From: Collinsella sp. AF02-46-1
Lineage (GTDB): Bacteria > Actinomycetota > Coriobacteriia > Coriobacteriales > Coriobacteriaceae
Assembly (NCBI GenBank): GCA_934876235.1
Contig: CAKXKM010000001.1
Span: 832-64,831 of the forward strand
DNA length: 64,000 nucleotides
Direction: 5' to 3'
The translations under genes were made by a program, and so were the position numbers. The notes below the pieces were generated by a model that worked only from the letters and a program-made list of their open reading frames with translations, was not told where the DNA came from and ran no database searches. Of the stretch, positions 3,890 through 57,328 are shown in pieces (within the stretch, counting starts at the first letter, position 1; each line of letters starts with the position of its first letter).

Positions 3890-3927
3890 AATCGCCCCGT
3901 CCTCAACCAAGAACGGGGCGATTTTTT
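3890..3927 (+). terminator. rho-independent terminator of pepT
   Basis: The stem is ATCGCCCCGT-loop-ACGGGGCGAT, followed by TTTTTT. Confidence 0.7.
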
Positions 3928-3968
3928 GCTGCAATGAGAACAGGTTGACGCACGCCAGCCTCTTAACG

Positions 3969-4299
3969 CAAGGAGTGTCCCAAACTGCCGGCACAAAAGG
4001 AACGTCCCCAAGTGCCGCAAAATGACGACATCCACTCTCGCTTTGTGGGTAGTCATTGGGGAGGTTCTTGTTTGACTAGTCGTTTAAAAACGTCCCCAAT
4101 GACTACCCAACGACTAGTCCGGACCAAGGCAACGCCGATGTTTTGGCAACGACAGCGAAAACCCGCCAGAGCGAGCAAGGTGCCTTGAAACGAGGCGGCA
4201 TTGATCTTTTGATCATGCCGCCGAAGTTGAAAGGCAGATTGCCGCTCTGGCGGGTTTGCAGCGTCAACTGGTTACGCGGGCTGGTAAGCCTGCGTAACC
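3969..4299 (+). repeat. intergenic structured repeat, family R1, copy A (long form with 5' modules M1 and a 16-bp inverted repeat, plus the conserved core 4137-4299)
   Basis: The core GATGTTTTGGCAACG..CAGCGA..CCAGAGCGAGCAAGG-hairpin1-..CGCTCTGG..GCAGCGTC..-hairpin2(GGTA loop) is shared with copies at 19641, 25634, 29415 and 49027. The copy ends 1 nt before the LCP stop codon (4300-4302). Confidence 0.8.
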
Positions 4300-5535
4300 C
4301 TAATAATTGGCCTCGTAGCCGTTGCCGTCGCCGGTGGGCTCTTCGTAGTAATCGGAACTGTCGCTCGAATCGTCGGAATCGTCAGAGCTGACCGATGAGG
4401 TTGCGGTACCGTTTGCGTAGTCGTCAGACGTGTTGTTGCTGAGGTCACCGATCGTAGAGCTGGAACCGTCGGAAAGACCCATGGTGTTGGGACCCTTGGG
4501 ATCCTTGCCGGCATCGACGCGCTCCATCATTTCCTTGAGCTCGTCCTCGTAGACAAAGACGTAGCTCACACCGTCGATCATGGTGCTGTCGTCGGCGTAC
4601 GAGGGCAGGTTGGCCGAGTAGATACCGTCGACATCCATACCGCGCATGGCGTTGACCGTAGCCACGATATCCTGAACGCTCATATCGGTTACAAGCATAT
4701 CGGACAGCGAATTAACCAGGCCAAAGATCTTCGTGGCATCGAAGTTATTGAGAATCTGGTTGGCAAGGGCGCCAAGCACCTGACGCTGGTGGCGCATGCG
4801 CGTGTAATCGCCGTCGGCATAGGTGTAGCGGCAGCGGGCATAGGTAAGGGCGGTGGCACCGTCCATATGCTGCTGGCCAGCGGTAATCTTAATATCCAGG
4901 TGCTCGGGGTCGTCAACATCATCGGTTGCGTTAATGTCGATACCGCCAACCGAATCAATCAGCGCCTGCATACCGTCGAAGCTGACCTCGGCATAGTGGG
5001 AAATCTGAACACCGCACAGCTCGTTGACCGCCTCGACCATGGCCTCGGCGCCGCCAACGGTATGGCAGGCGTTGATCTTCATGGTCTCGCCCTTGTACTC
5101 GACCTTGGTGTCGCGCGGAACGGAAATGAGCGTCGCCTGCTTTTGCGTGGGGTCGATGCGTGCCAGGATAATCGAGTCGGCACGATACGTATCCTCGCCC
5201 GGACGGCCGTCGGTGCCAAGAAGCAGCACGTAGAACGGATCCTTTGCCTCATCGGTGTCAACCAGAACCCGACGCAGATTGTCAGTAATGACATTAGAAT
5301 CGCCGAGCTTGCCCATAATGGTGGCAAACCACAGGCCGGCAGCGGTAGTGGCACTCAGCAGCACGCCAAGCACGACAATGAGCGCGACGTGACGAATCGT
5401 GTGGCTACGGCGGCGTTGACGAGCGCGCTCGGAATAGCGAGCCACGTTATCGCGACTGTAGATCTTGGCCTGCGCACCAGTTGAGGGTCTTCGGGTGGTG
5501 GTATCCGCGAGGGGCTTTTTATTAAACATAGGCAA
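4300..5535 (-). CDS. LytR-CpsA-Psr (LCP) family cell-envelope phosphotransferase
   Basis: An N-terminal TM helix, LCP motifs (LLLGTDGR, DSIILARID, LISVPRDT) and an acidic Ser/Asp-rich C-terminal tail. Confidence 0.85.
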   Translation of the reverse strand: MPMFNKKPLADTTTRRPSTGAQAKIYSRDNVARYSERARQRRRSHTIRHVALIVVLGVLLSATTAAGLWFATIMGKLGDSNVITDNLRRVLVDTDEAKDPFYVLLLGTDGRPGEDTYRADSIILARIDPTQKQATLISVPRDTKVEYKGETMKINACHTVGGAEAMVEAVNELCGVQISHYAEVSFDGMQALIDSVGGIDINATDDVDDPEHLDIKITAGQQHMDGATALTYARCRYTYADGDYTRMRHQRQVLGALANQILNNFDATKIFGLVNSLSDMLVTDMSVQDIVATVNAMRGMDVDGIYSANLPSYADDSTMIDGVSYVFVYEDELKEMMERVDAGKDPKGPNTMGLSDGSSSTIGDLSNNTSDDYANGTATSSVSSDDSDDSSDSSDYYEEPTGDGNGYEANY

Positions 5536-19640: not shown

Positions 19641-19858
19641 CAAGGCAATGTCACCAATGACTCCCTACGGATCATTTGACAACCAAGGAAACGCCGATGT
19701 TTTGGCAATGTCAGCGAGCGACGTCCAGAGCGAACAAGTTGGCATGAAAAAGGCAAGGCATAGACCTTCTGGTCATGCCTTGCCTTTTGAATGACAAATT
19801 GTCGCTCTGGGCGGCGCGCAGCGTCGAGCAGTTACGGCGTTTGGTAAAACGCCGTAAC
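19641..19858 (+). repeat. structured repeat family R1, copy B
   Basis: Same conserved core as copy A (GATG at 19696). The copy ends exactly at the prfA stop codon (19859-19861). Confidence 0.8.
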
Positions 19859-20926
19859 TTAAACAGCCTGTGCCAGCTTCTCGGCACGCTCGGCGGCGGC
19901 GAGCGCCTCGATGACGGTGCCGAGCTGGTCGCCCAGGAGGACGCCGTTGTAGGTGGAGTTGAAGCCGATGCGGTGATCGGTCACGCGGTCCTGGGGCTGG
20001 TTGTAGGTACGGATCTTCTCGGAACGGTTGCCGTGGCCGATCTGGCTCTGGCGCTCGGCACCGAGCTCCGCCTGCTGCTTCTCGAGCTCCATCTCGTACA
20101 GACGGGCGCGCAGCATCTGCATGCAGACTTCGCGGTTCTGGATCTGGGAGCGCTGTTCCTGCGACTGCACCACGGTGTTGGTGGGCAGGTGGGTGATGCG
20201 CACGGCAGAATAAGTGGTGTTAACGCACTGACCGCCAGGGCCGGAGGCGCAGTAGGTGTCGATGCGCAGGTCGGACTGGTTGATCTGGACGTCGATTTCC
20301 TCGGCCTCGGGAAGTACGGCGACGGTTGCCGTGGAGGTCTGGATGCGACCCTGGGACTCGGTCTTGGGGACACGCTGGACACGGTGCACGCCGGACTCGA
20401 ACTTCATGACGGAGTAGACGCGGTCGCCCTCGACCTTGAACTCAATGGACTTAAAGCCGCCGGCCTCGCTGGGGCTGGAGTCGAGCACGGTGGTCTTCCA
20501 GCCGCGCGACTCACAGAAGCGCTGATACATCTTGTACAGATCGCCGGCAAAGATGGCCGCCTCGTCGCCACCGGCGGCGGAGCGAATCTCGACGATGGTG
20601 TTCTTGTCGTCGTTGGGGTCGCTCGGGATGAGCATGTACTTAATGTCTTCCTCGAGCTGGGGAAGCTTGGCCTCGTTTTCGGAGATGTCCATCTGGAGCA
20701 TCTCCTTCTCATCGGCATCGGTAGTATCGTGGAGCATTTCCTTGGCAGCCTCGATGTCATCGAGCGCGCCGATGTACTCGCGCGAGGCGGCGATGAGGTC
20801 GGACTGGTGCGCGTACTCCTTGTTGAGACGCGTGAACTCCTTGATGTCGGAGGCAACGGCCGGGTCGGAAAGCTTCTTCTCGAGCTCCTCGTAGGCCTTG
20901 ATAATCTTTTCGAGCTTGTCGCGCAT
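19859..20926 (-). CDS. prfA: peptide chain release factor 1
   Basis: GGQ motif (GPGGQCVNTT) and PxT-type RF1 domain organisation; 355 aa. Confidence 0.95.
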   Translation of the reverse strand: MRDKLEKIIKAYEELEKKLSDPAVASDIKEFTRLNKEYAHQSDLIAASREYIGALDDIEAAKEMLHDTTDADEKEMLQMDISENEAKLPQLEEDIKYMLIPSDPNDDKNTIVEIRSAAGGDEAAIFAGDLYKMYQRFCESRGWKTTVLDSSPSEAGGFKSIEFKVEGDRVYSVMKFESGVHRVQRVPKTESQGRIQTSTATVAVLPEAEEIDVQINQSDLRIDTYCASGPGGQCVNTTYSAVRITHLPTNTVVQSQEQRSQIQNREVCMQMLRARLYEMELEKQQAELGAERQSQIGHGNRSEKIRTYNQPQDRVTDHRIGFNSTYNGVLLGDQLGTVIEALAAAERAEKLAQAV

Positions 20927-21124
20927 GGCGGGACTCCTTTATATGCGTGAAGGTGAAAATCGGCAGAGTTGATGGGGCGCGCGGCGCCACTGTGGGGGTA
21001 AGCCCGGCTAGAACATGTCGATCTTCAGATACATGCGCATCCCTTCGCGTATGGGGTACATAGTTGCGGTCTAACCCATACATGATAGCGTGCGCAGGCA
21101 AACCTGCATATAACCCGCACGGAA

Positions 21125-21153
21125 TGTGACAAAGGGACAGTCCCTTTGTCACA
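21125..21153. repeat. palindromic repeat family R2, short copy (TGTGACAAAGGGAC AG TCCCTTTGTCACA)
   Basis: A perfect 13-bp inverted repeat with a 2-nt spacer, ending 2 nt before the stop of the M20 peptidase gene. The same palindrome recurs at 57271 and, as degenerate variants (GTGACGAAGGAGC-AG-CCCCCTTGTCAC and GTGGCAAAGGGAC-TGTC-TTTTGTTTCAC), at 27829 and 32891. Confidence 0.75.
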
Positions 21154-21155
21154 TC

Positions 21156-25633: not shown

Positions 25634-25815
25634 GGTAGTCATTGGGAGCGTCGATGTTTTGGCAATGCCAGCGAGCGCCGCCCAGAGCGAACAAGTTAGC
25701 ATGAAAAAGGCAAGGCATAGACCTTCTGGTCATGCCTTGCCTTTTGAATGACAAATTGTCGCTCTGGGTGGCGCGCAGCGTCGACCGGTCCGTCGTTCGT
25801 TAGAACGGCGGAACC
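25634..25815 (+). repeat. structured repeat family R1, copy C
   Basis: Same conserved core (GATG at 25653). The 5' end shares GGTAGTCATTGGG with copy A. The copy ends 1 nt before the aldose-epimerase stop codon (25817-25819). Confidence 0.8.
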
Positions 25816-25816
25816 T

Positions 25817-26710
25817 CTAGAGCAGGGTAACGCTAAAGCTGCGAACGTCCGTCTCACCCGGTGCCAAGGTAATGGTGTTGACCTTGTGCTCAAAGACGTC
25901 GTCCTCGGTGTCCATGGTGGTGTGGCCGGTCCAGGGCTCGAGCGCCACAAACGGGGCGTCGTTGGCGGCAGACCACACGCCGATGTACTTAAAGCCCTCA
26001 AAGTCGATCTTGACGCCGTGGCCCGACTTGCGGCCGCGCAGCGTGAGCGTGGAACCCGGGACATCGGTGAACATGATGGCATCGTTATCGAAGCTGCGGT
26101 GCGTGATGGGCAGCACGTCCGAGTTATCGGGAGCCTTGTAGCTACCCTCGAACGTCATGAGACCGTCGGGCGTGATGATGGGAGCCTCGTTCGTCCAGGC
26201 CTCGGTAAACGCCAGCTCGTAATCCTCGAATACCTCGTCCTCGGCACCGGGGGCGGGCACGTTAAATGCGGGGTGGCCGCCCACCGAGAACGGCAGGTCC
26301 ACGTCGCCGGTGTTCGTAACGGCAAAGGTCTGGGTAAGCGTGGCGTCGCCGGTCAGGGCATAGGTCATGTTGAGCTTAAAGTGAAACGGAAAGGCCTTGA
26401 GCGACTCGGGCGTATCGGTGATCTCGTACGTTACCGAGGAGCCGTCCTCCGAAACCTCGACCAGCTTGTGCTCGACGATGCGCGCGAGTCCGTGGCGCGG
26501 CATCTCGCAGGTGCCGGCCGCAGACGTTGCCGTGTTGTTGCGCAGCGAGCCCACAATGGGGAACAGGATGGGCGCATGCTTGCCCCAAAAGGTGGGATCG
26601 CCCTGCCACAGATACTCGTTGCCGTTGAGGGCAAGGCTCGTGAGCTGGGCACCCATGGAATCGATGGCCGCGGTGAGGCCGCCGCGCTTGATGGTAGTGA
26701 CGGTGGACAT
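25817..26710 (-). CDS. aldose 1-epimerase family protein (YihR-like)
   Basis: Motifs ILFPIVGSLRN and GGHPAFN; about 297 aa from the internal Met. Confidence 0.75.
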   Translation of the reverse strand: MSTVTTIKRGGLTAAIDSMGAQLTSLALNGNEYLWQGDPTFWGKHAPILFPIVGSLRNNTATSAAGTCEMPRHGLARIVEHKLVEVSEDGSSVTYEITDTPESLKAFPFHFKLNMTYALTGDATLTQTFAVTNTGDVDLPFSVGGHPAFNVPAPGAEDEVFEDYELAFTEAWTNEAPIITPDGLMTFEGSYKAPDNSDVLPITHRSFDNDAIMFTDVPGSTLTLRGRKSGHGVKIDFEGFKYIGVWSAANDAPFVALEPWTGHTTMDTEDDVFEHKVNTITLAPGETDVRSFSVTLL

Positions 26711-27659: not shown

Positions 27660-27744
27660 ACGGGGCGCCCCTTAAGCCTCGCAAATAAACACTTGCCAGC
27701 CTTATACCCCCAGATGGCGCGGGAACTCGCCGGCACAGACAGGA

Positions 27745-27860
27745 AAACCGTCACAACATTCGACGCTTTTCCTCGTTTTCGAGATTTTCGCCGAATGTTG
27801 TGACGGTTTGGGCAGCAGCCACACCGCGAATGTGACGAAGGAGCAGCCCCCTTGTCACAT
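27745..27860. repeat. repeat family R2, composite copy 1 (hairpin CGTCACAACATT-N33-AATGTTGTGACG plus palindrome variant GTGACGAAGGAGC..CCCCCTTGTCAC)
   Basis: Nearly identical to the composite copy at 32824-32922. Its palindrome arm contains the MerR-gene stop codon (27855-27857). Confidence 0.75.
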
Positions 27861-29394: not shown

Positions 29395-29414
29395 GACAAC
29401 TCCTAACAACAAAA

Positions 29415-29584
29415 TGGCAGCTATAGGTCGGGCAATGTCAGCGAGCGCGCGTCTGGCGAGGCAAGGTGCCCCGAAACAAGAAGGCATAGGGCTTATGCCC
29501 ATGCCTTCGCAGTTGAGGGGCAGATTGCCCGCCAGGCGCGGGCGCAGCGTCGAGTGGTCCGGCGTTCGGTAGAACGCCGGAACC
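29415..29584 (+). repeat. structured repeat family R1, copy D
   Basis: Variant core (GGGCAATGTCAGCGAGCG...) with the same helices carrying compensatory substitutions. The copy ends exactly at the ubiD stop codon (29585-29587), between ubiD and ubiX. Confidence 0.75.
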
Positions 29585-31075
29585 TTAGAAAGCAATCTCC
29601 TTGGCCCACTTGTCTGTGTCGATCTCCATGAACTGCGAGCGGATGAAGTTCTTCTTGAGGTCGAACGGGACCGTGCAGTCGAAGATGGCCTTGCAGGCGA
29701 TGCCGTGCTCGCGGATCGTGGGGTCGAACGCGGGGTCGTTGGACGGATCGAGCACGTGGCAGTGGCAACCGGGGATGGTGATGAGGTCCACGTCGGCCTG
29801 GAAGCGCGTGGTCATGGCCCACATCACGTCGCTCATATCGAAGATATCGACATCCTCGTCAACAAGGATGACGTGCTTGAGCTCGGAGAACGCCGAGAAG
29901 GCGAGCATGGCGGCGTTGCGCTGACGGCCCTCGTCATTTTTGCTCGACTTCTTGAACTGCATGATAGCAACGAACTTGCCGCCGCCGCAGGGAGCGGCGT
30001 GGACGTTGAGCAGACGGCCCGGGATGGCGGTCTCGACCATCTTGTAGATGGAGGCCTCGGTGGGGATACCGGCCATGGACACGTGCTCGTGCGAAGGACC
30101 GATGCAGCTCTCCATAATGGGGTTGACGCGCGTGGTAACGGCGGTGATCTTGATCACCGGGCAGACCTTGGCGCCACCGGTGTAACCGGGGAACTCGGGC
30201 ATGGCGTAGCCGTGGCCGTTGACGTCCTCGTTGATGGTCTCGTCGTGCATGAGGTAGCCCTCGAGCACGTACTCGGCATTGGCAATGCACTTCTGCGGAA
30301 CGGTGACGCAGTCGGCAAGCTCGACGGCGTGGCCGCGCAGGGCACCGGCGATCTGCAGCTCGTTGAAGCCGAGCGGCGTGGTGGGAGCCTCGAAGCCGCA
30401 GCACATGTACACGGCGGGGTCCAGACCGATGGAGATGGAGATGGGCATATCCTCGCCACGCTGGCAGTACTCGTCAAAGAACGCGCCCAGGTGACGGCTG
30501 CCGGGGGTAATCCACATGGCGAGCTTGTCCTTGTCGACGCAGGAGAAACGGTGGATGGTCACGTCGGACTGGGAGCCGTCGGGGCTCGTGCCGTAGGCGA
30601 GGCCCATGGTGATGTAGGGGCCGCCGTCGACGGGCGTGTTGGTAGGAGCGGGAACGATCTTGCGCAGGTCAAAGCCCTCGTCGGTCGCCTTGTACACGAC
30701 CTCCTGGCAGTCGACGTGCGCACCCTCGGCGATCTGCTCGGGCGCGATCAGGTTCTCGAAGCGCTTGCCGATCTCGAGGCCCAGGTGCTCCTCGTCCAGG
30801 TCGAGCAGGGCGGCAACGCGCTTGCGGCTGGCAAGCATGCCGATGCAGACCTTGGCATCGTCAAAGCCCTTGACGTTGTTGAAGACCATCGCCGGGCCCT
30901 CTTTGGTCGGGCGCATAACGGTGCCGCCGGCACCGACGTGACGATAGACACCCGAGACCTCGGCGTCCGGGTCGACCTGAGTGTCGGTCTCGAGCAGCTG
31001 GCCCGGCATCTCGCGCAAAAAGTCGAGCGCGGAGCGCAGGTCGTGGATCTGGGAAGCATCGGTAGTGGACATAGC
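29585..31075 (-). CDS. ubiD: UbiD-family prFMN-dependent (de)carboxylase
   Basis: 497 aa from MSTTDASQ with full-length UbiD-family similarity. The track ORF starts at 31150. Confidence 0.85.
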   Translation of the reverse strand, partial: AMSTTDASQIHDLRSALDFLREMPGQLLETDTQVDPDAEVSGVYRHVGAGGTVMRPTKEGPAMVFNNVKGFDDAKVCIGMLASRKRVAALLDLDEEHLGLEIGKRFENLIAPEQIAEGAHVDCQEVVYKATDEGFDLRKIVPAPTNTPVDGGPYITMGLAYGTSPDGSQSDVTIHRFSCVDKDKLAMWITPGSRHLGAFFDEYCQRGEDMPISISIGLDPAVYMCCGFEAPTTPLGFNELQIAGALRGHAVELADCVTVPQKCIANAEYVLEGYLMHDETINEDVNGHGYAMPEFPGYTGGAKVCPVIKITAVTTRVNPIMESCIGPSHEHVSMAGIPTEASIYKMVETAIPGRLLNVHAAPCGGGKFVAIMQFKKSSKNDEGRQRNAAMLAFSAFSELKHVILVDEDVDIFDMSDVMWAMTTRFQADVDLITIPGCHCHVLDPSNDPAFDPTIREHGIACKAIFDCTVPFDLKKNFIRSQFMEIDTDKWAKEIAF

Positions 31076-32672: not shown

Positions 32673-32823
32673 CTCCCCACCTTTCTTGTTGGGGGCGCTC
32701 CGGATTCGCGGCCACGTTGCCACTTAAAAAGGGGCGCCCGTTATCGGACACCCCTTACGTTGCGCTGTGTTGTGGCAATACAGTCAAGCGGGATTTTTGG
32801 ATGAGAAGCGATCCTCTGGACAA

Positions 32824-32922
32824 AAAGCGTCACAACATTCGACGCTTTTCCTCGTTTTCGAGATTTTCATCAAATGTTGTGACGGTTTGGATGTGGCAAA
32901 GGGACTGTCTTTTGTTTCACAT
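32824..32922. repeat. repeat family R2, composite copy 2
   Basis: Same hairpin CGTCACAACATT...AATGTTGTGACG followed by palindrome variant ATGTGGCAAAGGGAC..TTTTGTTTCACAT. The palindrome contains the stop codon (32917-32919) of the upstream gene. Confidence 0.75.
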
Positions 32923-49026: not shown

Positions 49027-49312
49027 GAGGTAGTCGTTGGGGACGTTCTTAAATGACTAGTCGACACAAGGAGTGTCCCAAAGTGCCGACAGAAAAGGAA
49101 CGTCCCCAAGTGCCGCCCCCAACGACTACTCGCCAGCAACGGCAATGTCGATGTCTTGGCAACGATAGCGAAAACCCGCCAGAGCGAGCAAGGTGCCTTG
49201 AAACAAGGCGGCATTGACCTTTTGGTCATGCCGCCGAAGTTGAACGCCAGATTGCCGCTTAGGAGCGTTTGCAGCGTCGAGCGGTTACGGCGTTTGGCAA
49301 AACTCCGTAACT
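49027..49312 (+). repeat. structured repeat family R1, copy E (long form with inverted-repeat and M1 modules in a different order from copy A)
   Basis: Core from 49150 (GATGTCTTGGCAACGATAGCGAAAACCCGCCAGAGCGAGCAAGG...). The M1 module CAAGGAGTGTCCCAAAGTGCCGACAGAAAAGGAACGTCCCCAAGTGCCGC is flanked by the inverted repeat GAGGTAGTCGTTGGGG / CCCCAACGACTACTC. Confidence 0.8.
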
Positions 49313-49410
49313 ATAAGTTTGGTACCTTGACATTCATTTCTCATGCTCCTAGATTGGTTAGGCACAAAACAATTCCACTACCTAACTAAAGAAAGGAGCA
49401 ACACTAATTC

Positions 49411-49917: not shown

Positions 49918-51724
49918 AACCCTCATGGGCAGCATCCGCGACTATATGAAAGTCACCGTTGCCACGCCGTTGCTCGTGCTTGGCGAGGTGCTCTGCGAGA
50001 TGCTGATTCCATTTATCACCGCCAACCTGATCGATGCCATCAAAGACGGCGCCACCGTAGCCGAGATGCTTCCCACCGCGGGCCTTTTAGTGCTCATCGC
50101 GCTGACATCGCTTGCTTTTGGCGCCGCGGCCGGCGTCACCTGCAGCCATGCGAGCTGCGGCTTCGCCAAGAACCTGCGTCACGACCTGTTCTACAAAATC
50201 CAGACGTTCAGCTTTGCCAACATCGATGAGTTCTCGAGCTCATCGCTCGTCACGCGCCTGACCACCGATATCAACAACGTGCAGCAGGCCTTTATGATGA
50301 TCATCCGTATCGCCGTGCGCGCGCCGCTGGTATTGATCTTCGCCTTTACCATGGCGTTTATCATGGGCGGCAGCGTCGCCATGGTCTACCTGGTCATCAT
50401 TCCGCTGCTGGGCTTTGGACTGTTCTTTATCATCTTTAAGGTGCGCCCCATCTTCTCGCGCGTGTTCCACAAGTACGATGCCCTTAACGAGTCCGTCGAG
50501 GAAAACGTCACCGGCATGCGCGTGGTCAAGAGCTATGTGCGCGAAGACTTTGAGAAGGAGAAGTTCGCGACCGCCGCGCGCGACGTCCAGATGGACTTCA
50601 CCCGCGCCGAGAAGCTGCTCGCCTTTAACAACCCCATGATGAACATCTGCGTCAACGGCGCGTTTGTCGTCATCATCTACCTGGGCTCCAAGCTCATCAT
50701 CACGAGCCAGGGCACGCTGTTCGACGTGGGCCAGCTCTCCTCGACCTTTACCTATGGTTTCCAGATTCTCATGAGCCTGATGCAGCTGTCGATGATCTTT
50801 GTCATGGTGACCATGGCCGACGAATCGGCGCACCGCATTGCCGAGGTGCTGGCCGCCGAGCCCACGATCGCCGATCCCGCCGAGCCCGTGCTCGAGGTTG
50901 CCGACGGTTCCATCGACTTTGACCACGTGAGCTTTAAGTATTCCAAGCATGCGAAGCGCCAGGCGCTCGACGATATCGACCTGCACATTACGAGCGGCGA
51001 GACCATCGGCATCATCGGCGGCACCGGCTCGGCCAAGTCCACGCTCGTTAACCTCATCGCCCGCCTGTACGACACCACCGAAGGCGCTGTGCGCGTGGGC
51101 GGCGTGGACGTGCGCGACTACGACCTGGACGCGCTGCGTCACCAGGTCGCCATGGTGCTGCAGAAAAACGTGCTGTTTAGCGGCACCATCGCCGAGAACC
51201 TGCGTTGGGGCGACCCGAACGCCACCGACGAGGAAGTCCGCGAGGCGGCGCATCTGGCCTGCGCCGACGAGTTTGTCGACGGTTTCCCCAAGGGCTACGA
51301 CACCTGGATCGAACAGGGCGGCTCTAATGTTTCGGGCGGTCAGAAGCAGCGCCTGTGCATTGCACGCGCCCTGCTGCGTCGCCCCAAGATCTTGATCCTG
51401 GACGACTCCACCAGCGCCGTCGACACCAAGACCGACGCCAAGATCCGCGCAGGTTTGGCAAGCTATCTGCCCAACACGACCAAGCTCATCATCGCTCAGC
51501 GCATCAGCTCCGTGCAGGACGCAGACCGCATCATTGTCATGGAGGGCGGCCGTATCGCGCAGATCGGCAACCATGACGAGCTGCTTAAGACAAGCGAGAT
51601 CTACCGCGAGACCTTTACCTCGCAGAACAAGATGTCTGCCGAGGGCGAAGGGGCCGTCGAGGCCAACACCGAGGCATCCGCAACGCAAGCTCAGACCCAG
51701 GAAGGAGGCGAGGCACATGAGTAA
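49910..51724 (+). CDS. ABC exporter, fused permease/ATPase subunit 1 (type I exporter, heterodimer partner)
   Basis: A 6-TM domain plus an NBD with GGTGSAKST / VSGGQKQR / LILDDSTSAVD. Confidence 0.85.
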   Translation: MIKTLMGSIRDYMKVTVATPLLVLGEVLCEMLIPFITANLIDAIKDGATVAEMLPTAGLLVLIALTSLAFGAAAGVTCSHASCGFAKNLRHDLFYKIQTFSFANIDEFSSSSLVTRLTTDINNVQQAFMMIIRIAVRAPLVLIFAFTMAFIMGGSVAMVYLVIIPLLGFGLFFIIFKVRPIFSRVFHKYDALNESVEENVTGMRVVKSYVREDFEKEKFATAARDVQMDFTRAEKLLAFNNPMMNICVNGAFVVIIYLGSKLIITSQGTLFDVGQLSSTFTYGFQILMSLMQLSMIFVMVTMADESAHRIAEVLAAEPTIADPAEPVLEVADGSIDFDHVSFKYSKHAKRQALDDIDLHITSGETIGIIGGTGSAKSTLVNLIARLYDTTEGAVRVGGVDVRDYDLDALRHQVAMVLQKNVLFSGTIAENLRWGDPNATDEEVREAAHLACADEFVDGFPKGYDTWIEQGGSNVSGGQKQRLCIARALLRRPKILILDDSTSAVDTKTDAKIRAGLASYLPNTTKLIIAQRISSVQDADRIIVMEGGRIAQIGNHDELLKTSEIYRETFTSQNKMSAEGEGAVEANTEASATQAQTQEGGEAHE

Positions 51725-53636
51725 GGCAACGACCGCCGAGCGCGCGCTCAACCGCAAGGGCGGCACCATGTCGCGCCTCATCAAGACGCTCTTTGGCTTC
51801 TATCCTGTGCTTTTGCCCCTCGTCGTCGCCGGCGTGGTGCTCTGCGCCATCATCAACTCCATCGGCGCGACCTTCCTGCAGAGCGCCCTGCAAATTATTA
51901 GCGAATCGTGGCAGTCGGGCGATTGGGGGGCCGCGCAGCCCAAGATCGCACAGCTCGTGACCACCCTCGCCTGCATCTACGGCGTCGGTGTCCTGTCCTC
52001 GCTCTTCTGGAACCGCGCCATGGCTATCGTCACGCAGGGCTCGCTGGAAAAGCTGCGCGAGATGATGTTCAACCGCATGCAGGACCTGCCGATCCGCTAC
52101 TTCGACACGCACCAGCGCGGCGATATCATGAGCCACTACACCAACGACATCGACACGCTGCGTCAGATGATCAGCCAGTCGCTGCCCAACCTGCTCATGA
52201 CGATTATCATCATCGTCACGGTGTTCTTTATCATGCTGTACTACAGCGTGTGGATGTGCCTGGTCATCATCGCCGGCGTCGCCTTTATGACCTTTATGAC
52301 CAAGCTGCTCGGCTCCAACTCCGCGCGCTTCTTCATTGCACAGCAGACCGAGCTCGGCGTGGTCGAGGGCCATATCGAGGAGGTCATGAACGGCCAGAAG
52401 GTCGTCAAGGCGTTCTGCCACGAGTCTGCCGCCGAGGCCGATTTTGACGAGCGCAACGAGAAGCTCTTCGAGGTCTCCCAGAAGGCCAACATGTACGCCA
52501 ACATCCTCATGCCCATCCTTATGAACCTGGGCAACCTGCTCTACGTGCTGGTCGCACTGGCGGGCGGCATTTTCCTGGCGCTGGGCGTGCCCAACCTGAG
52601 CATCTCGGGCATGGCGCTGTCCATCGCCGTCGTGGTGCCGTTCCTCAACATGACCAAGCAGTTCTGCGGACAGATCGGCCAGATCTCGCAGCAGATCAAC
52701 GCCGTGGTCATGGGCCTCGCCGGCGCCGACCGCATCTTTGAGCTCATCGACGAGAAGCCCGAGGCTGACGAAGGCTACGTGACGCTCGTCAACGCGCAGG
52801 TGAACCCCGAGACTTGGGAGCTCGAGGAGGCTGACCACCACACCGGCATGTGGGCGTGGAAACATCCGCACCGCGCAACCGGCGAGATCGAGTACGTGCC
52901 GCTGCGCGGCGACCTGGTCATGGACAACGTCGACTTTGGCTACACGCCCGACCACGAGGTGCTGCACGGCGTGTCCGTGTTTGCCAAGCCGGGCCAGAAG
53001 GTCGCGTTTGTCGGCGCCACCGGTGCCGGCAAGACGACCATCACCAACCTCATCAACCGTTTCTATGACATCGCCGACGGCAAGATTCGCTACGACGGCA
53101 TCAACGTCAACAAAATCCGCAAGGCCGACCTGCGCCGAAGCCTGGGCGTCGTGCTGCAGGACGTGAACCTGTTCACCGGCACCGTGATGGATAACATCCG
53201 CTACGGCAACCTGAGCGCTACCGACGAGGAGTGCATCGCGGCGGCAAAGCTCGCCGGCGCCGACGACTTTATCACCCGCCTGCCCGACGGCTACGACACC
53301 ATGCTCACCGGCAACGGCGCCCAGCTGTCGCAGGGCCAGCGCCAGCTGATTTCGATCGCGCGCGCCGCCGTCGCCGATCCGCCGGCGATGATTCTGGACG
53401 AGGCCACGTCGAGCATCGACACCCGCACCGAGGCCATCGTGCAGGCCGGCATGGACAAGCTCATGGAGGGCCGCACGACGTTTGTCATCGCGCACCGCCT
53501 GTCCACCGTGCGCAACTCCGACGCGATCATCTGTCTGGACCACGGTCGCATCATCGAGCGCGGCAACCATGATGAGCTGATTGCCAAGCGCGGGTACTAC
53601 TACCAGCTGTACACGGGTGCGTTTGAGCTGGAGTAG
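51717..53636 (+). CDS. ABC exporter, fused permease/ATPase subunit 2
   Basis: The start ATG at 51717 overlaps the upstream stop by 8 nt and has a GGAAGGAGG Shine-Dalgarno. A TMD plus an NBD with GATGAGKTT / LSQGQRQL / MILDEATSSID. Confidence 0.85.
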   Translation: MSKATTAERALNRKGGTMSRLIKTLFGFYPVLLPLVVAGVVLCAIINSIGATFLQSALQIISESWQSGDWGAAQPKIAQLVTTLACIYGVGVLSSLFWNRAMAIVTQGSLEKLREMMFNRMQDLPIRYFDTHQRGDIMSHYTNDIDTLRQMISQSLPNLLMTIIIIVTVFFIMLYYSVWMCLVIIAGVAFMTFMTKLLGSNSARFFIAQQTELGVVEGHIEEVMNGQKVVKAFCHESAAEADFDERNEKLFEVSQKANMYANILMPILMNLGNLLYVLVALAGGIFLALGVPNLSISGMALSIAVVVPFLNMTKQFCGQIGQISQQINAVVMGLAGADRIFELIDEKPEADEGYVTLVNAQVNPETWELEEADHHTGMWAWKHPHRATGEIEYVPLRGDLVMDNVDFGYTPDHEVLHGVSVFAKPGQKVAFVGATGAGKTTITNLINRFYDIADGKIRYDGINVNKIRKADLRRSLGVVLQDVNLFTGTVMDNIRYGNLSATDEECIAAAKLAGADDFITRLPDGYDTMLTGNGAQLSQGQRQLISIARAAVADPPAMILDEATSSIDTRTEAIVQAGMDKLMEGRTTFVIAHRLSTVRNSDAIICLDHGRIIERGNHDELIAKRGYYYQLYTGAFELE

Positions 53637-53801: not shown

Positions 53802-53837
53802 GAGGCCCTGGCCAACTGGCCAGGGCCTCGTTTTGTT
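53802..53837 (+). terminator. rho-independent terminator of the ABC exporter operon
   Basis: A 13-bp stem GAGGCCCTGGCCA / TGGCCAGGGCCTC followed by GTTTTGTT. Confidence 0.7.
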
Positions 53838-53927
53838 AGTCTTTTTGGGACGGGGCTTTTTGACTACTTTGAGGGTGCGCAGGCAGGGCGGCGAAAGTAG
53901 CTAAAAAAGCCCCGTCCCAAAAAGACT
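53838..53927. repeat. about 90-bp near-perfect long inverted repeat (34-bp arms AGTCTTTTTGGGACGGGGCTTTTTGACTACTTTG / complement, 21-nt loop)
   Basis: Read directly from the sequence. It lies between the convergent ABC exporter and LysR genes, and the LysR stop codon is 17 nt away. Confidence 0.6.
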
Positions 53928-53943
53928 ACCCGCGCCAAATGAG

Positions 53944-57260: not shown

Positions 57261-57270
57261 TTTTACCGAT

Positions 57271-57297
57271 GCGACAAAGGGACAGTCCCTTTGTCGC
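57271..57297. repeat. palindromic repeat family R2, short copy (GCGACAAAGGGAC AG TCCCTTTGTCGC)
   Basis: Same 13-2-13 palindrome as at 21125, located 10 nt after the MFS stop codon. Confidence 0.7.
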
Positions 57298-57328
57298 ATT
57301 CCACCGCCACCAGTATTAAGGAGTCGAA

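Follow-up and report, generated by a model that had tools for sequence, protein, structure and literature searches.

A 64,000-nucleotide stretch of the Collinsella sp. AF02-46-1 genome (contig CAKXKM010000001.1 of assembly GCA_934876235.1, positions 832 to 64,831; hereafter the window) carries five copies, A to E, of a repeat that we refer to as R1. The initial annotation had reported five + strand copies of a modular, structured intergenic repeat, and a covariance model that we trained on 49 family members returns those five alone in the window, at essentially the same coordinates, with core scores of 168–193 bits; E-values of this home-built model are rough. Judged from its sequence and distribution, R1 is apparently a Collinsella-specific family of non-coding, structured repeats. 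In nearly all copies its 3′ end is set against the TAG or TAA stop codon of an opposite-strand gene, in tandem and convergent gene arrangements alike. This address is the principal new result; it goes beyond the initial annotation, as do the antisense position of the fold, the replacement of structural alleles at orthologous sites and the lack of terminal inverted repeats.

The model delimits + strand cores at 4126–4300, 19685–19860, 25642–25816, 29412–29585 and 49139–49313. A core of ~175 nt begins with a small 5′ hairpin and a box, continues through a ~100-nt bulged hairpin and the single-stranded box GCAGCGTCGA, and ends in a 12-bp terminal hairpin (hairpin 2). Optional 5′ modules, made of the iterated motif AAGRAACGTCCCCAA, add between 0 and 170 nt. 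The parts of the five copies and the genes beside them are as follows.

3966–4018, + strand: M1 module of copy A, two tandem ~25-nt units, AAGGA(G/AC)GTCCCMAA(C/G)TGCCG, with 92% identity to 49064–49116
4046–4109, + strand: palindromic module of copy A, TGGGTAGTCATTGGGGAGGTTCTT ... AAAAACGTCCCCAATGACTACCCA, with 24-nt arms at 4046–4069 and 4086–4109 that are 92% complementary
4126–4300, + strand: core of copy A, 192.8 bits in the covariance model
4137–4159, + strand: 5′ box of copy A
4159–4257, + strand: long bulged hairpin of copy A, outer stem 4159–4173 with 4243–4257
4258–4267, + strand: box GCAGCGTCAA of copy A
4270–4299, + strand: hairpin 2 of copy A
4300–4302, − strand: TAG stop of the LytR_cpsA_psr gene (4300–5535, − strand), 1 nt from the end of hairpin 2 of copy A
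19685–19860, + strand: core of copy B, with a shared 5′ extension of ~40 nt from ~19641
19696–19718, ~19718–19817, 19818–19827 and 19831–19858, + strand: 5′ box, long hairpin, box and hairpin 2 of copy B
19859–19861: TAA stop of prfA, directly after hairpin 2 of copy B, which forms part of the prfA–prmC spacer
25634–25816, + strand: copy C, with half a palindromic module (25636–25651) fused directly to the core
25653–25675, 25675–25774, 25775–25784 and 25787–25814, + strand: 5′ box, long hairpin, box and hairpin 2 of copy C
25817–25819: TAG stop of the aldose-epimerase gene, 2 nt from the end of copy C
29412–29585, + strand: core of copy D, with unique compensated stems, box at 29544–29553 and hairpin 2 at 29556–29583
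29585–29587: TAA stop of ubiD; copy D makes up almost the entire ubiD–ubiX spacer, with the ubiX start codon at 29395–29397 (− strand)
49027–49313, + strand: copy E, with palindromic arms at 49030–49045 and 49114–49129 around M1 (49064–49116)
49139–49313, + strand: core of copy E, hairpin 2 at 49284–49311; the copy is flanked by a divergent pfkB-type kinase gene and a MarR gene and is the sole window copy away from a stop codon

A bidirectional terminator at 3890–3923 lies on the far side of copy A from the LytR-family gene.

Modules and distribution of the family

The helices described in the initial annotation were found again. The long-range helix of copy A, AAACCCGCCAGAGCG with CGCTCTGGCGGGTTT, is complementary at 15 of 15 positions, and copy D carries the alternative pairing of GCGCGTCTGGCG with CGCCAGGCGCGG; the three distal-stem variants of hairpin 1, the conserved single strand GCAGCGTC(G/A)A, and hairpin 2 with its stem variants are likewise present. 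The 5′ box GATGTTTTGGCAAYGNCAGCGAG, said to be common to the copies, occurs in four of them (≤3 mismatches; shuffles expect 0), while copy D retains its 3′ half, GGGCAATGTCAGCGAG, alone. A σ54 reading of TGGCA in this box was rejected by eye, the GG–GC spacing being 2 nt too short.

The modular, mosaic make-up that had been proposed is confirmed. The extra 5′ modules of copies A and E are real and consist of a 53-nt box (M1) and a 16–24-nt inverted repeat in differing order, with the box inside the inverted repeat in E and beside it in A. The M1 motif ACGTCCCCAAKKRCYR gives 7 matches where 0.7 are expected, and the motif of the palindromic module, TAGTCRTTGGGGACG, adjoins R1 cores in 53 loci. 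The palindromic module (TAGTCRTTGGGGACG...CGTCCCCAAYGACTA) and the M1 box share the ~15-nt iterated motif AAGRAACGTCCCCAA in both orientations, and this motif at times lies far from any R1 core (for example, L023 261–275 and L103 4168–4182). Because of these distant occurrences, the AAGRAACGTCCCCAA repeat may be an independent mini-element or a protein-binding iteron.

Copies beyond the window were sampled by scanning species-representative genomes with the pattern GGCAAYGNNAGCGA-N(90–115)-GCAGCGTC, which gave at least 119 stretches among the matches listed. A true copy was found by nhmmer in 113 of these, all from Collinsella, 'Coriobacteriaceae bacterium' or unnamed gut bins, and in none of the six pattern matches outside this lineage (five from other phyla and one from an Eggerthellaceae metagenome-assembled genome). 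As the pattern demands both conserved boxes, the scan under-samples divergent subfamilies (for example, the L048 and L049 types), sets only a lower bound on the taxonomic range and overstates the invariance of the boxes; many of the sampled loci are metagenome bins. By their flanks, the copies fall at ~30 distinct genomic sites in more than 100 Collinsella assemblies.

For comparison, we read 240 kb of the RefSeq record NZ_OY725717.1 (C. aerofaciens TSDC17.2-1.1, 899,693 bp), which has at least 23 R1 places in all and four copies in the part read. These four independent sites, together with the ~30 sites in more than 100 assemblies, dispose of a local segmental duplication and bear out the earlier description of R1 as a dispersed family. 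A plasmid origin is unsupported, as the single 'plasmid' match is this same 900-kb, chromosome-like record, and so is a phage origin, as there was no match in a phage genome and none of 12 pattern matches in viral contigs holds a copy. Deposited as 'plasmid 6', the record (loci L128 and L139–L141) carries recA, dnaE, ftsK, ruvABC, rny, der, aminoacyl-tRNA ligases and BREX-1, and looks like a chromosome segment rather than a plasmid.

Searches against Rfam 15 gave 0 matches at the gathering score in the window, and at E ≤10 none beyond chance microRNA-type hairpins far below threshold. The earlier failure to recognize a named family by eye thus extends to Rfam as a whole, including the Collinsella-1 motif (RF01700), and no Rfam signal was seen for hammerhead or other ribozymes or for the HEARO and IS605-orfB motifs. 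Full-text literature searches returned no description of the R1 family, nor of such an interspersed repeat for C. aerofaciens. In the catalogue published by Fremin and Bhatt (2021; PMC8040213), some Collinsella candidates adjoin proB, NAPRTase and mraY; an overlap with one R1 copy is possible, and no sequence was matched in the supplement.

Fold, covariation and folding strand

The five window cores align with a mean column identity of 80%, and RNAalifold recovers from this alignment the small 5′ hairpin, the ~100-nt hairpin and the 12-bp hairpin, with double changes in 24 of the 59 predicted pairs. The + strand RNA of copy A folds at −110.7 kcal/mol (z = −12.2), and as DNA it folds at −63.7 kcal/mol (z = −10.1).

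We analyzed covariation in 116 model-aligned copies, 109 of them distinct, from the ~30 genomic sites. Standard pairs fill 97.5% of the cells in the distinct copies, compared with 77.5% after shuffling and 28–41% when the partners are slid by 1–3 columns. Both sides have changed in 35 of the 48 pairs, and none of 500 shuffles matched the observed value on any of five covariation measures. The pairing-preserving changes first noticed among five copies are thus confirmed in the wider family and, with the fold, support the original interpretation that an RNA or single-stranded DNA (ssDNA) structure is under selection. Furthermore, alleles of the same site that are at least 90% identical show 30 distinct compensatory double changes, about a dozen of them in the long hairpin. 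We conclude that base pairing in R1 is maintained by selection or homogenization.

Outer-stem alleles are discrete (AAACCCGCCAGAGCG, GCGGGTCGCATTTGAG, GCGACGTCCAGAGCG, AAACGCCCCTAAGCG and others), the inner stems fall into several types and hairpin 2 into three or four, and these combine in many ways, including chimeras. Fixed across copies are the 5′ box, CAAGGTG / CAGATTG, the apical GACCTTCTGGTC and GCAGCGTCGA. The bases G62 A63 A64 and T103 G104 A105 are invariant and, as read from the bases themselves, would form a symmetric UGAA/UGAA tandem G·A motif. Conservation extends to the purine-rich internal loops, and a UUCG apical loop is present in some alleles. Hairpin 2 has an 11-6-11 (28-bp) geometry with GTT...AAC ends. 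A mutual-information scan for a pseudoknot or extra tertiary pairs gave nested helices and linkage between subfamilies alone. A coding or mini-ORF (open reading frame; MIRU-like) reading was also rejected, as no frame runs conserved through the unit: for every frame on either strand, at most 51% of 105 unique cores are open.

Several asymmetries distinguish the two strands. The + strand RNA is the more stable in 100 of 104 unique cores, by a mean of 7.8 kcal/mol; the − strand RNA reaches −96.2 kcal/mol (z = −10.2). When non-Watson–Crick states are counted once per site and column, G·U occurs 49 times versus 20 for A·C (p = 6e-4), and among mismatches purine·purine occurs 41 times versus 16 for pyrimidine·pyrimidine. 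On the opposite strand, the tandem G·A would become a U·C/C·U mismatch. Together, these four observations assign the selected fold to the + strand, the one antisense to the gene that R1 abuts. This evidence leaves RNA and ssDNA undecided, because tandem G·A and G·T are tolerated in DNA too.

A search of 91 R1 representatives for σ70-like promoters, the class covered by this survey, found no positionally conserved one on either strand (at most 3 of 91 per 10-nt bin) and none at copy A. No U-tract follows hairpin 2 in any of the five window copies, copy A is preceded by the strong terminator listed above, and the spacer around copy D is too tight for a promoter. With no conserved promoter, no U-tract and a terminator ahead of copy A, an autonomous + strand transcript is unsupported. 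Where the neighboring genes converge, a + strand transcript of the element would arise anyway.

Stop-codon junction and allele exchange

We measured the distance from R1 to a gene between the last base of hairpin 2 and the stop of a convergent ORF (minimum length, 100 codons). In 97 of the 105 copies with enough flank this distance is −1 to +26 nt, and in 83 of these 97 abutting copies (86%) it is −1 to +3 nt. Four of the five window copies (A–D) are flush with a stop codon. Among the eight exceptions, six carry a second tandem unit of box and hairpin 2 that occupies the junction, and the sole true exception is site E. All four copies read in NZ_OY725717.1 end at the stops of annotated coding sequences, those of an M20 peptidase, an SDR oxidoreductase, queA and proB. 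At several sites the C that ends the hairpin is itself complementary to the G in TAG, and variants without hairpin 2 still adjoin the stop.

Counted by site, the stop codons are 20 TAG, 5 TAA and 0 TGA, against a background of ~52%, 33% and 15%, which points to a modest preference for TA beside the element. The gene arrangement is tandem at ~16 sites and convergent at ~10. The upstream neighbors at 30 sites are ordinary genes, and the abutted genes are functionally unrelated.

The possibility that the element supplies the stop by truncating the gene was rejected for ubiD. Collinsella lineages without R1 at ubiD–ubiX have the ubiD stop at the identical codon position, so the native stop is used and ubiD is not truncated. 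In one ubiD–ubiX spacer without R1 (L123 2263–2500), the 238 nt are unrelated to R1 and contain their own GC-rich hairpin and T-run (CGGGCCCGGAGCCGCGCGCTTCGGGCCCGTTTTT, gene strand); the whole spacer, beyond a mere insertion, therefore differs between lineages. Models based purely on target sequence or purely on selection both fail to explain the choice of an in-frame stop codon as the junction.

All five window sites carry the element in each of the available syntenic genomes (flanks 91–99% identical), but its content differs: at site A three genomes have a different stem allele and no palindromic module but share the M1 box and the junction. Across 182 orthologous-site pairs, the core has been replaced in 43% (mean identity 73%), whatever the similarity of the adjacent gene, and a replaced core is found in 4 of 9 pairs with at least 97% third-codon-position identity. 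At one site, cultured isolates (L040, L043 and L065) show such replacement too. Whole structural alleles are exchanged at a fixed junction among close genomes. Cores of the same type, by comparison, are 95.3% identical versus 87.4% at third codon positions of the abutted gene; since they change more slowly than these positions, the resident copies are constrained or homogenized. The allele of copy D is one that also occurs in the orthologues L050 and L118.

Rearranged and decayed forms are found as well. Mosaic subfamilies, chimeras and tandem duplications of the 3′ module occur, as do solo hairpin-2 units at stop codons and hairpin-2 arms left behind between the stop and a newer copy. At site E, strains with an identical MarR protein have 5′-truncated and internally deleted copies. 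There is also a long/short polymorphism, in which L048 has 287 nt versus 29 nt in four other genomes, and the 29 nt keep a hairpin-2 arm and a module fragment. Searches for an empty site yielded an unrelated spacer in the contexts of UbiX homologues, rearranged copies only in MarR contexts, and, in an all-against-all comparison of flanks, this one short allele with its remnants.

Candidate explanations and relation to known elements

Our leading explanation, which we hold tentatively and short of conviction, is that R1 is a non-autonomous interspersed structured repeat, copied or homogenized as a folded single strand by an enzyme in trans, with its 3′ end anchored next to TA. The strand could be ssDNA or an RNA copy, copying would be anchored at the R1 3′ end beside the TA, and the enzyme would be encoded away from the copies. 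Gene ends would then be the one place where copies both arrive and are tolerated, possibly becoming co-opted.

R1 works most like the REP/BIME, ERIC and BOX elements, in that it is extragenic, situated at gene ends, structured and modular and has no transposase of its own; it has its own anatomy and an unusual address, and it misses defining features of each family tested (REP, MITE, IS200/IS605 derivatives, attC and small RNA (sRNA) genes). Like REPs, it is high-copy and non-coding and lies just downstream of ORFs in unidirectional and convergent pairs, and the REP trait of lying predominantly there is seen in the 97 of 105 copies that abut a stop. Both also form hairpin subfamilies with stem variants and mosaic composites (BIMEs). 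However, a REP unit measures 20–40 bp, whereas the R1 core has ~175 nt with a 100-nt bulged hairpin. REPs are mostly head-to-head dimers, whereas R1 copies are single and co-oriented; neighboring full copies have the same orientation in all multi-copy loci, and one solo hairpin-2 unit is the only inverted case. No gene for a RAYT (Y1 transposase) was found among the neighbors of the 30 sites or in the 240 kb of the C. aerofaciens record. In the CGTC REPs surveyed by Di Nocera et al. (2013; PMC3733652), the tag directly abuts an 8–9-bp stem and there is a CCA tail, whereas the CGTC of R1 sits 5–6 nt 5′ of hairpin 2 with its 12-bp stem. REPs were unreported in Actinobacteria in that survey, with 0 occurrences (PMC3733652).

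R1 resembles ERIC, an imperfect palindrome of 100–150 nt or more, and BOX, a modular composite (A-B-C) with a variable number of modules, and it shares with both a place in transcribed intergenic regions and the lack of coding capacity and of a transposase. These elements belong to other phyla and have no sequence relation to R1 by eye. To our knowledge, neither ERIC nor BOX lies flush with stop codons in a fixed antisense orientation or shows such covariation of its stems.

Correia (CREE) and RUP elements are likewise small, multi-copy, structured when transcribed, and have a TA dinucleotide at their junctions; in R1, TA stands beside the 3′ end, and extended copies begin with TAGTC.... Terminal inverted repeats and TA duplications are the defining features of both families. 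R1 is set apart from them by its lack of terminal inverted repeats, as inverted-repeat scans of copies A, C and E found internal hairpins alone. The observations that bear on a target-site duplication are the TA after the 3′ end (0 TGA in 25 sites) and the TAGTC start of extended copies; the searches for a clean empty site yielded none. The sampled loci, phages and plasmids showed no insertion sequence that shares the R1 ends and could be its parent.

Palindrome-associated elements derived from IS200/IS605, and ωRNA, share with R1 the absence of terminal inverted repeats, possibly that of target duplication, subterminal hairpins, strand-specific folding as a single strand, and one sequence-constrained junction. 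In R1, however, that junction is at the 3′ end, no conserved 4–5-nt target lies 5′ of the folding strand, and the 5′ flanks share no motif. Hairpin 2 stands 0–3 nt from the junction versus about 10–20 nt, no TnpA or TnpB genes lie nearby, and there is no Rfam match.

A number of observations weigh against copying by an enzyme in trans. No clean empty site turned up among the genomes compared, since the syntenic ones are all occupied and the one short allele still has element-like remnants. Copies within a genome are not near-identical (A–E 85%, B–C 93%), so there has been no recent burst. No mobilizing enzyme was found among the upstream neighbors at 30 sites, and the transposases in the 240 kb sampled (IS21, IS256, IS3 and IS1249) do not adjoin copies. 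The missing terminal inverted repeats in A, C and E are joined by only a weak hint of TA at both ends. A target sequence alone cannot account for an in-frame stop address, because an enzyme acting at the DNA level cannot read frames. Should replication run in the direction of the abutted genes, the fold would be on the leading-strand template, which is not the strand expected in IS200/IS605-type ssDNA transposition. Finally, the slower-than-synonymous change and the retention in essential operons fit a host function equally well.

Across the window, cumulative GC skew peaks at ~32–36 kb, where gene orientation switches from mostly − to mostly +. The sign of the skew is opposite to that of an origin with a G-rich leading strand, and the 64-kb profile is too short and weak to assign the leading strand or the replichore orientation of the genes.

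The main rival, possible but in our judgment less likely than copying in trans, is that R1 is a cis-acting RNA element of the host mRNA, in the 3′ untranslated region or intercistronic spacer of the abutted gene. Its very stable structure, beginning at the stop codon, would act on the decay or processing of the mRNA, on termination, or on how translation of the upstream cistron terminates. Because copies B, C and D sit within co-directional gene pairs (prfA–prmC, epimerase–SBP and ubiD–ubiX), gene-strand transcription must run through them, and a nucleotide-precise, in-frame stop address is visible to translation only. An effect on translation termination of the upstream cistron was reportedly observed by Liang, Rudd and Deutscher in 2015 for REP hairpins of E. 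coli that lie ~15 nt or less from a stop codon. A host role also agrees with the retention of sites across genomes, with cores more conserved than synonymous sites and compensated within sites, and with the fact that the sole window copy off a stop codon, E, is the one decaying in other strains; the − strand RNA, moreover, is itself very stable. Against this, the asymmetry among wobbles and mismatches, together with the invariant tandem G·A, puts the fold antisense to the mRNA, and neither hairpin is generally followed by a U-tract on the gene strand. Also against it, the abutted genes are functionally unrelated, structural alleles and 5′ modules are swapped freely at one site, and related Collinsella lineages do without R1 at ubiD–ubiX.

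A doubtful but more novel reading would make R1 a stop-codon-homing element, copied 3′-end-first from a folded single strand of RNA, in the manner of SINE-like retroposition, or of ssDNA. Copying in this direction would give a precise 3′ junction and a variable or truncated 5′ end with no terminal inverted repeats, and with template switching it would produce chimeric alleles and tandem duplications of the 3′ module. It would also lead to a selected fold on the antisense strand and to resident copies repeatedly overwritten at the junction. We know of no described bacterial counterpart for an element with such a translation-defined address.

Improbable in our view is an independent + strand RNA, either an antisense sRNA family or a TnpB ωRNA-like scaffold with a 3′ 'guide' antisense to the last codons of the abutted gene. 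The + strand does carry the selected fold, with a precise 3′ junction, a variable 5′ end, conserved purine-rich internal loops and the UUCG loop of some alleles, and an upstream + strand gene would transcribe the element in the ~10 convergent contexts. Yet the 91 representatives have no positionally conserved promoter, nor does the terminator-preceded copy A have one, hairpin 2 has no U-tract terminator, and copy D leaves no room for a promoter. Furthermore, Rfam gives no match to HEARO, IS605-orfB or another family, no gene for TnpB, IscB or another nuclease lies beside any copy examined, and there is no conserved 5′ motif of the kind that a transposon-associated motif (TAM) or target site would leave.

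Least probable of all, by analogy with the attC sites of integrons, is that R1 copies are recombination sites for a tyrosine-type recombinase recognizing folded ssDNA: the fold on the antisense ('bottom') strand, the constant orientation to a preceding ORF whose stop codon is abutted, structure conserved over sequence, the 11-6-11 geometry of hairpin 2 with its GTT...AAC ends, and cassette-like exchange of core alleles with one boundary at the hairpin-2 junction all resemble attC, but the consensus is unmet, no integrase gene lies nearby, the flanks are housekeeping genes in conserved synteny, several kb apart and not cassettes, and the gene content between sites is invariant. The order of the boxes in attC is R″ RYYYAAC ... 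R′ GTTRRRY, whereas the ORF strand of R1 reads GTTAC...GTAAC, the opposite order. The analogy of an antisense fold that starts at a stop codon may nevertheless be worth pursuing.

Collinsella aerofaciens is among the commonest Actinomycetota in the human gut. R1 brings together a rare trio of traits, namely covariation of the depth seen in bona fide RNAs, a nucleotide-exact address at the stop codon of an opposite-strand gene, and frequent swaps of alleles that are each conserved above synonymous sites. As selfish DNA, it would imply an unknown structure-dependent copying or homing activity in Coriobacteriia; as a host element, it would be a common 3′-end device on dozens of genes, including prfA, queA, proB and ubiD. 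In practical terms, R1 is a ready strain-typing marker, and it also breaks assemblies and gives rise to spurious 'structured RNA' predictions in gut metagenomes.

Other repeats lie in the window. A 31-nt palindrome, ATGTGACAAAGGGACAGTCCCTTTGTCACAT, has three copies (21124–21154, 27830–27860 and 57269–57299), and a relative of it stands directly upstream of an R1 core at one site elsewhere (L108 and L026); it is another small Collinsella hairpin repeat and possibly a terminator family. Unrelated to R1 is a 68-nt near-perfect palindromic repeat, AAAACCGTCACAACATTCGACG...CGAATGTTGTGACGGTTT, at 27744–27811 and 32823–32890 (94% identical, 5 kb apart). A large near-perfect hairpin, GUUAGUCUUUUUGGGACGGGGCUUUUUG...CAAAAAGCCCCGUCCCAAAAAGACUA, lies at 53835–53930 between two − strand genes and gives a chance microRNA-like Rfam match on both strands. 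Finally, long ORFs downstream of the MarR gene contain a 132-nt direct repeat at 51173–51304 and 53169–53300 (71% identical, 2 kb apart), which probably represents paralogous domains of two adjacent ABC-transporter genes.

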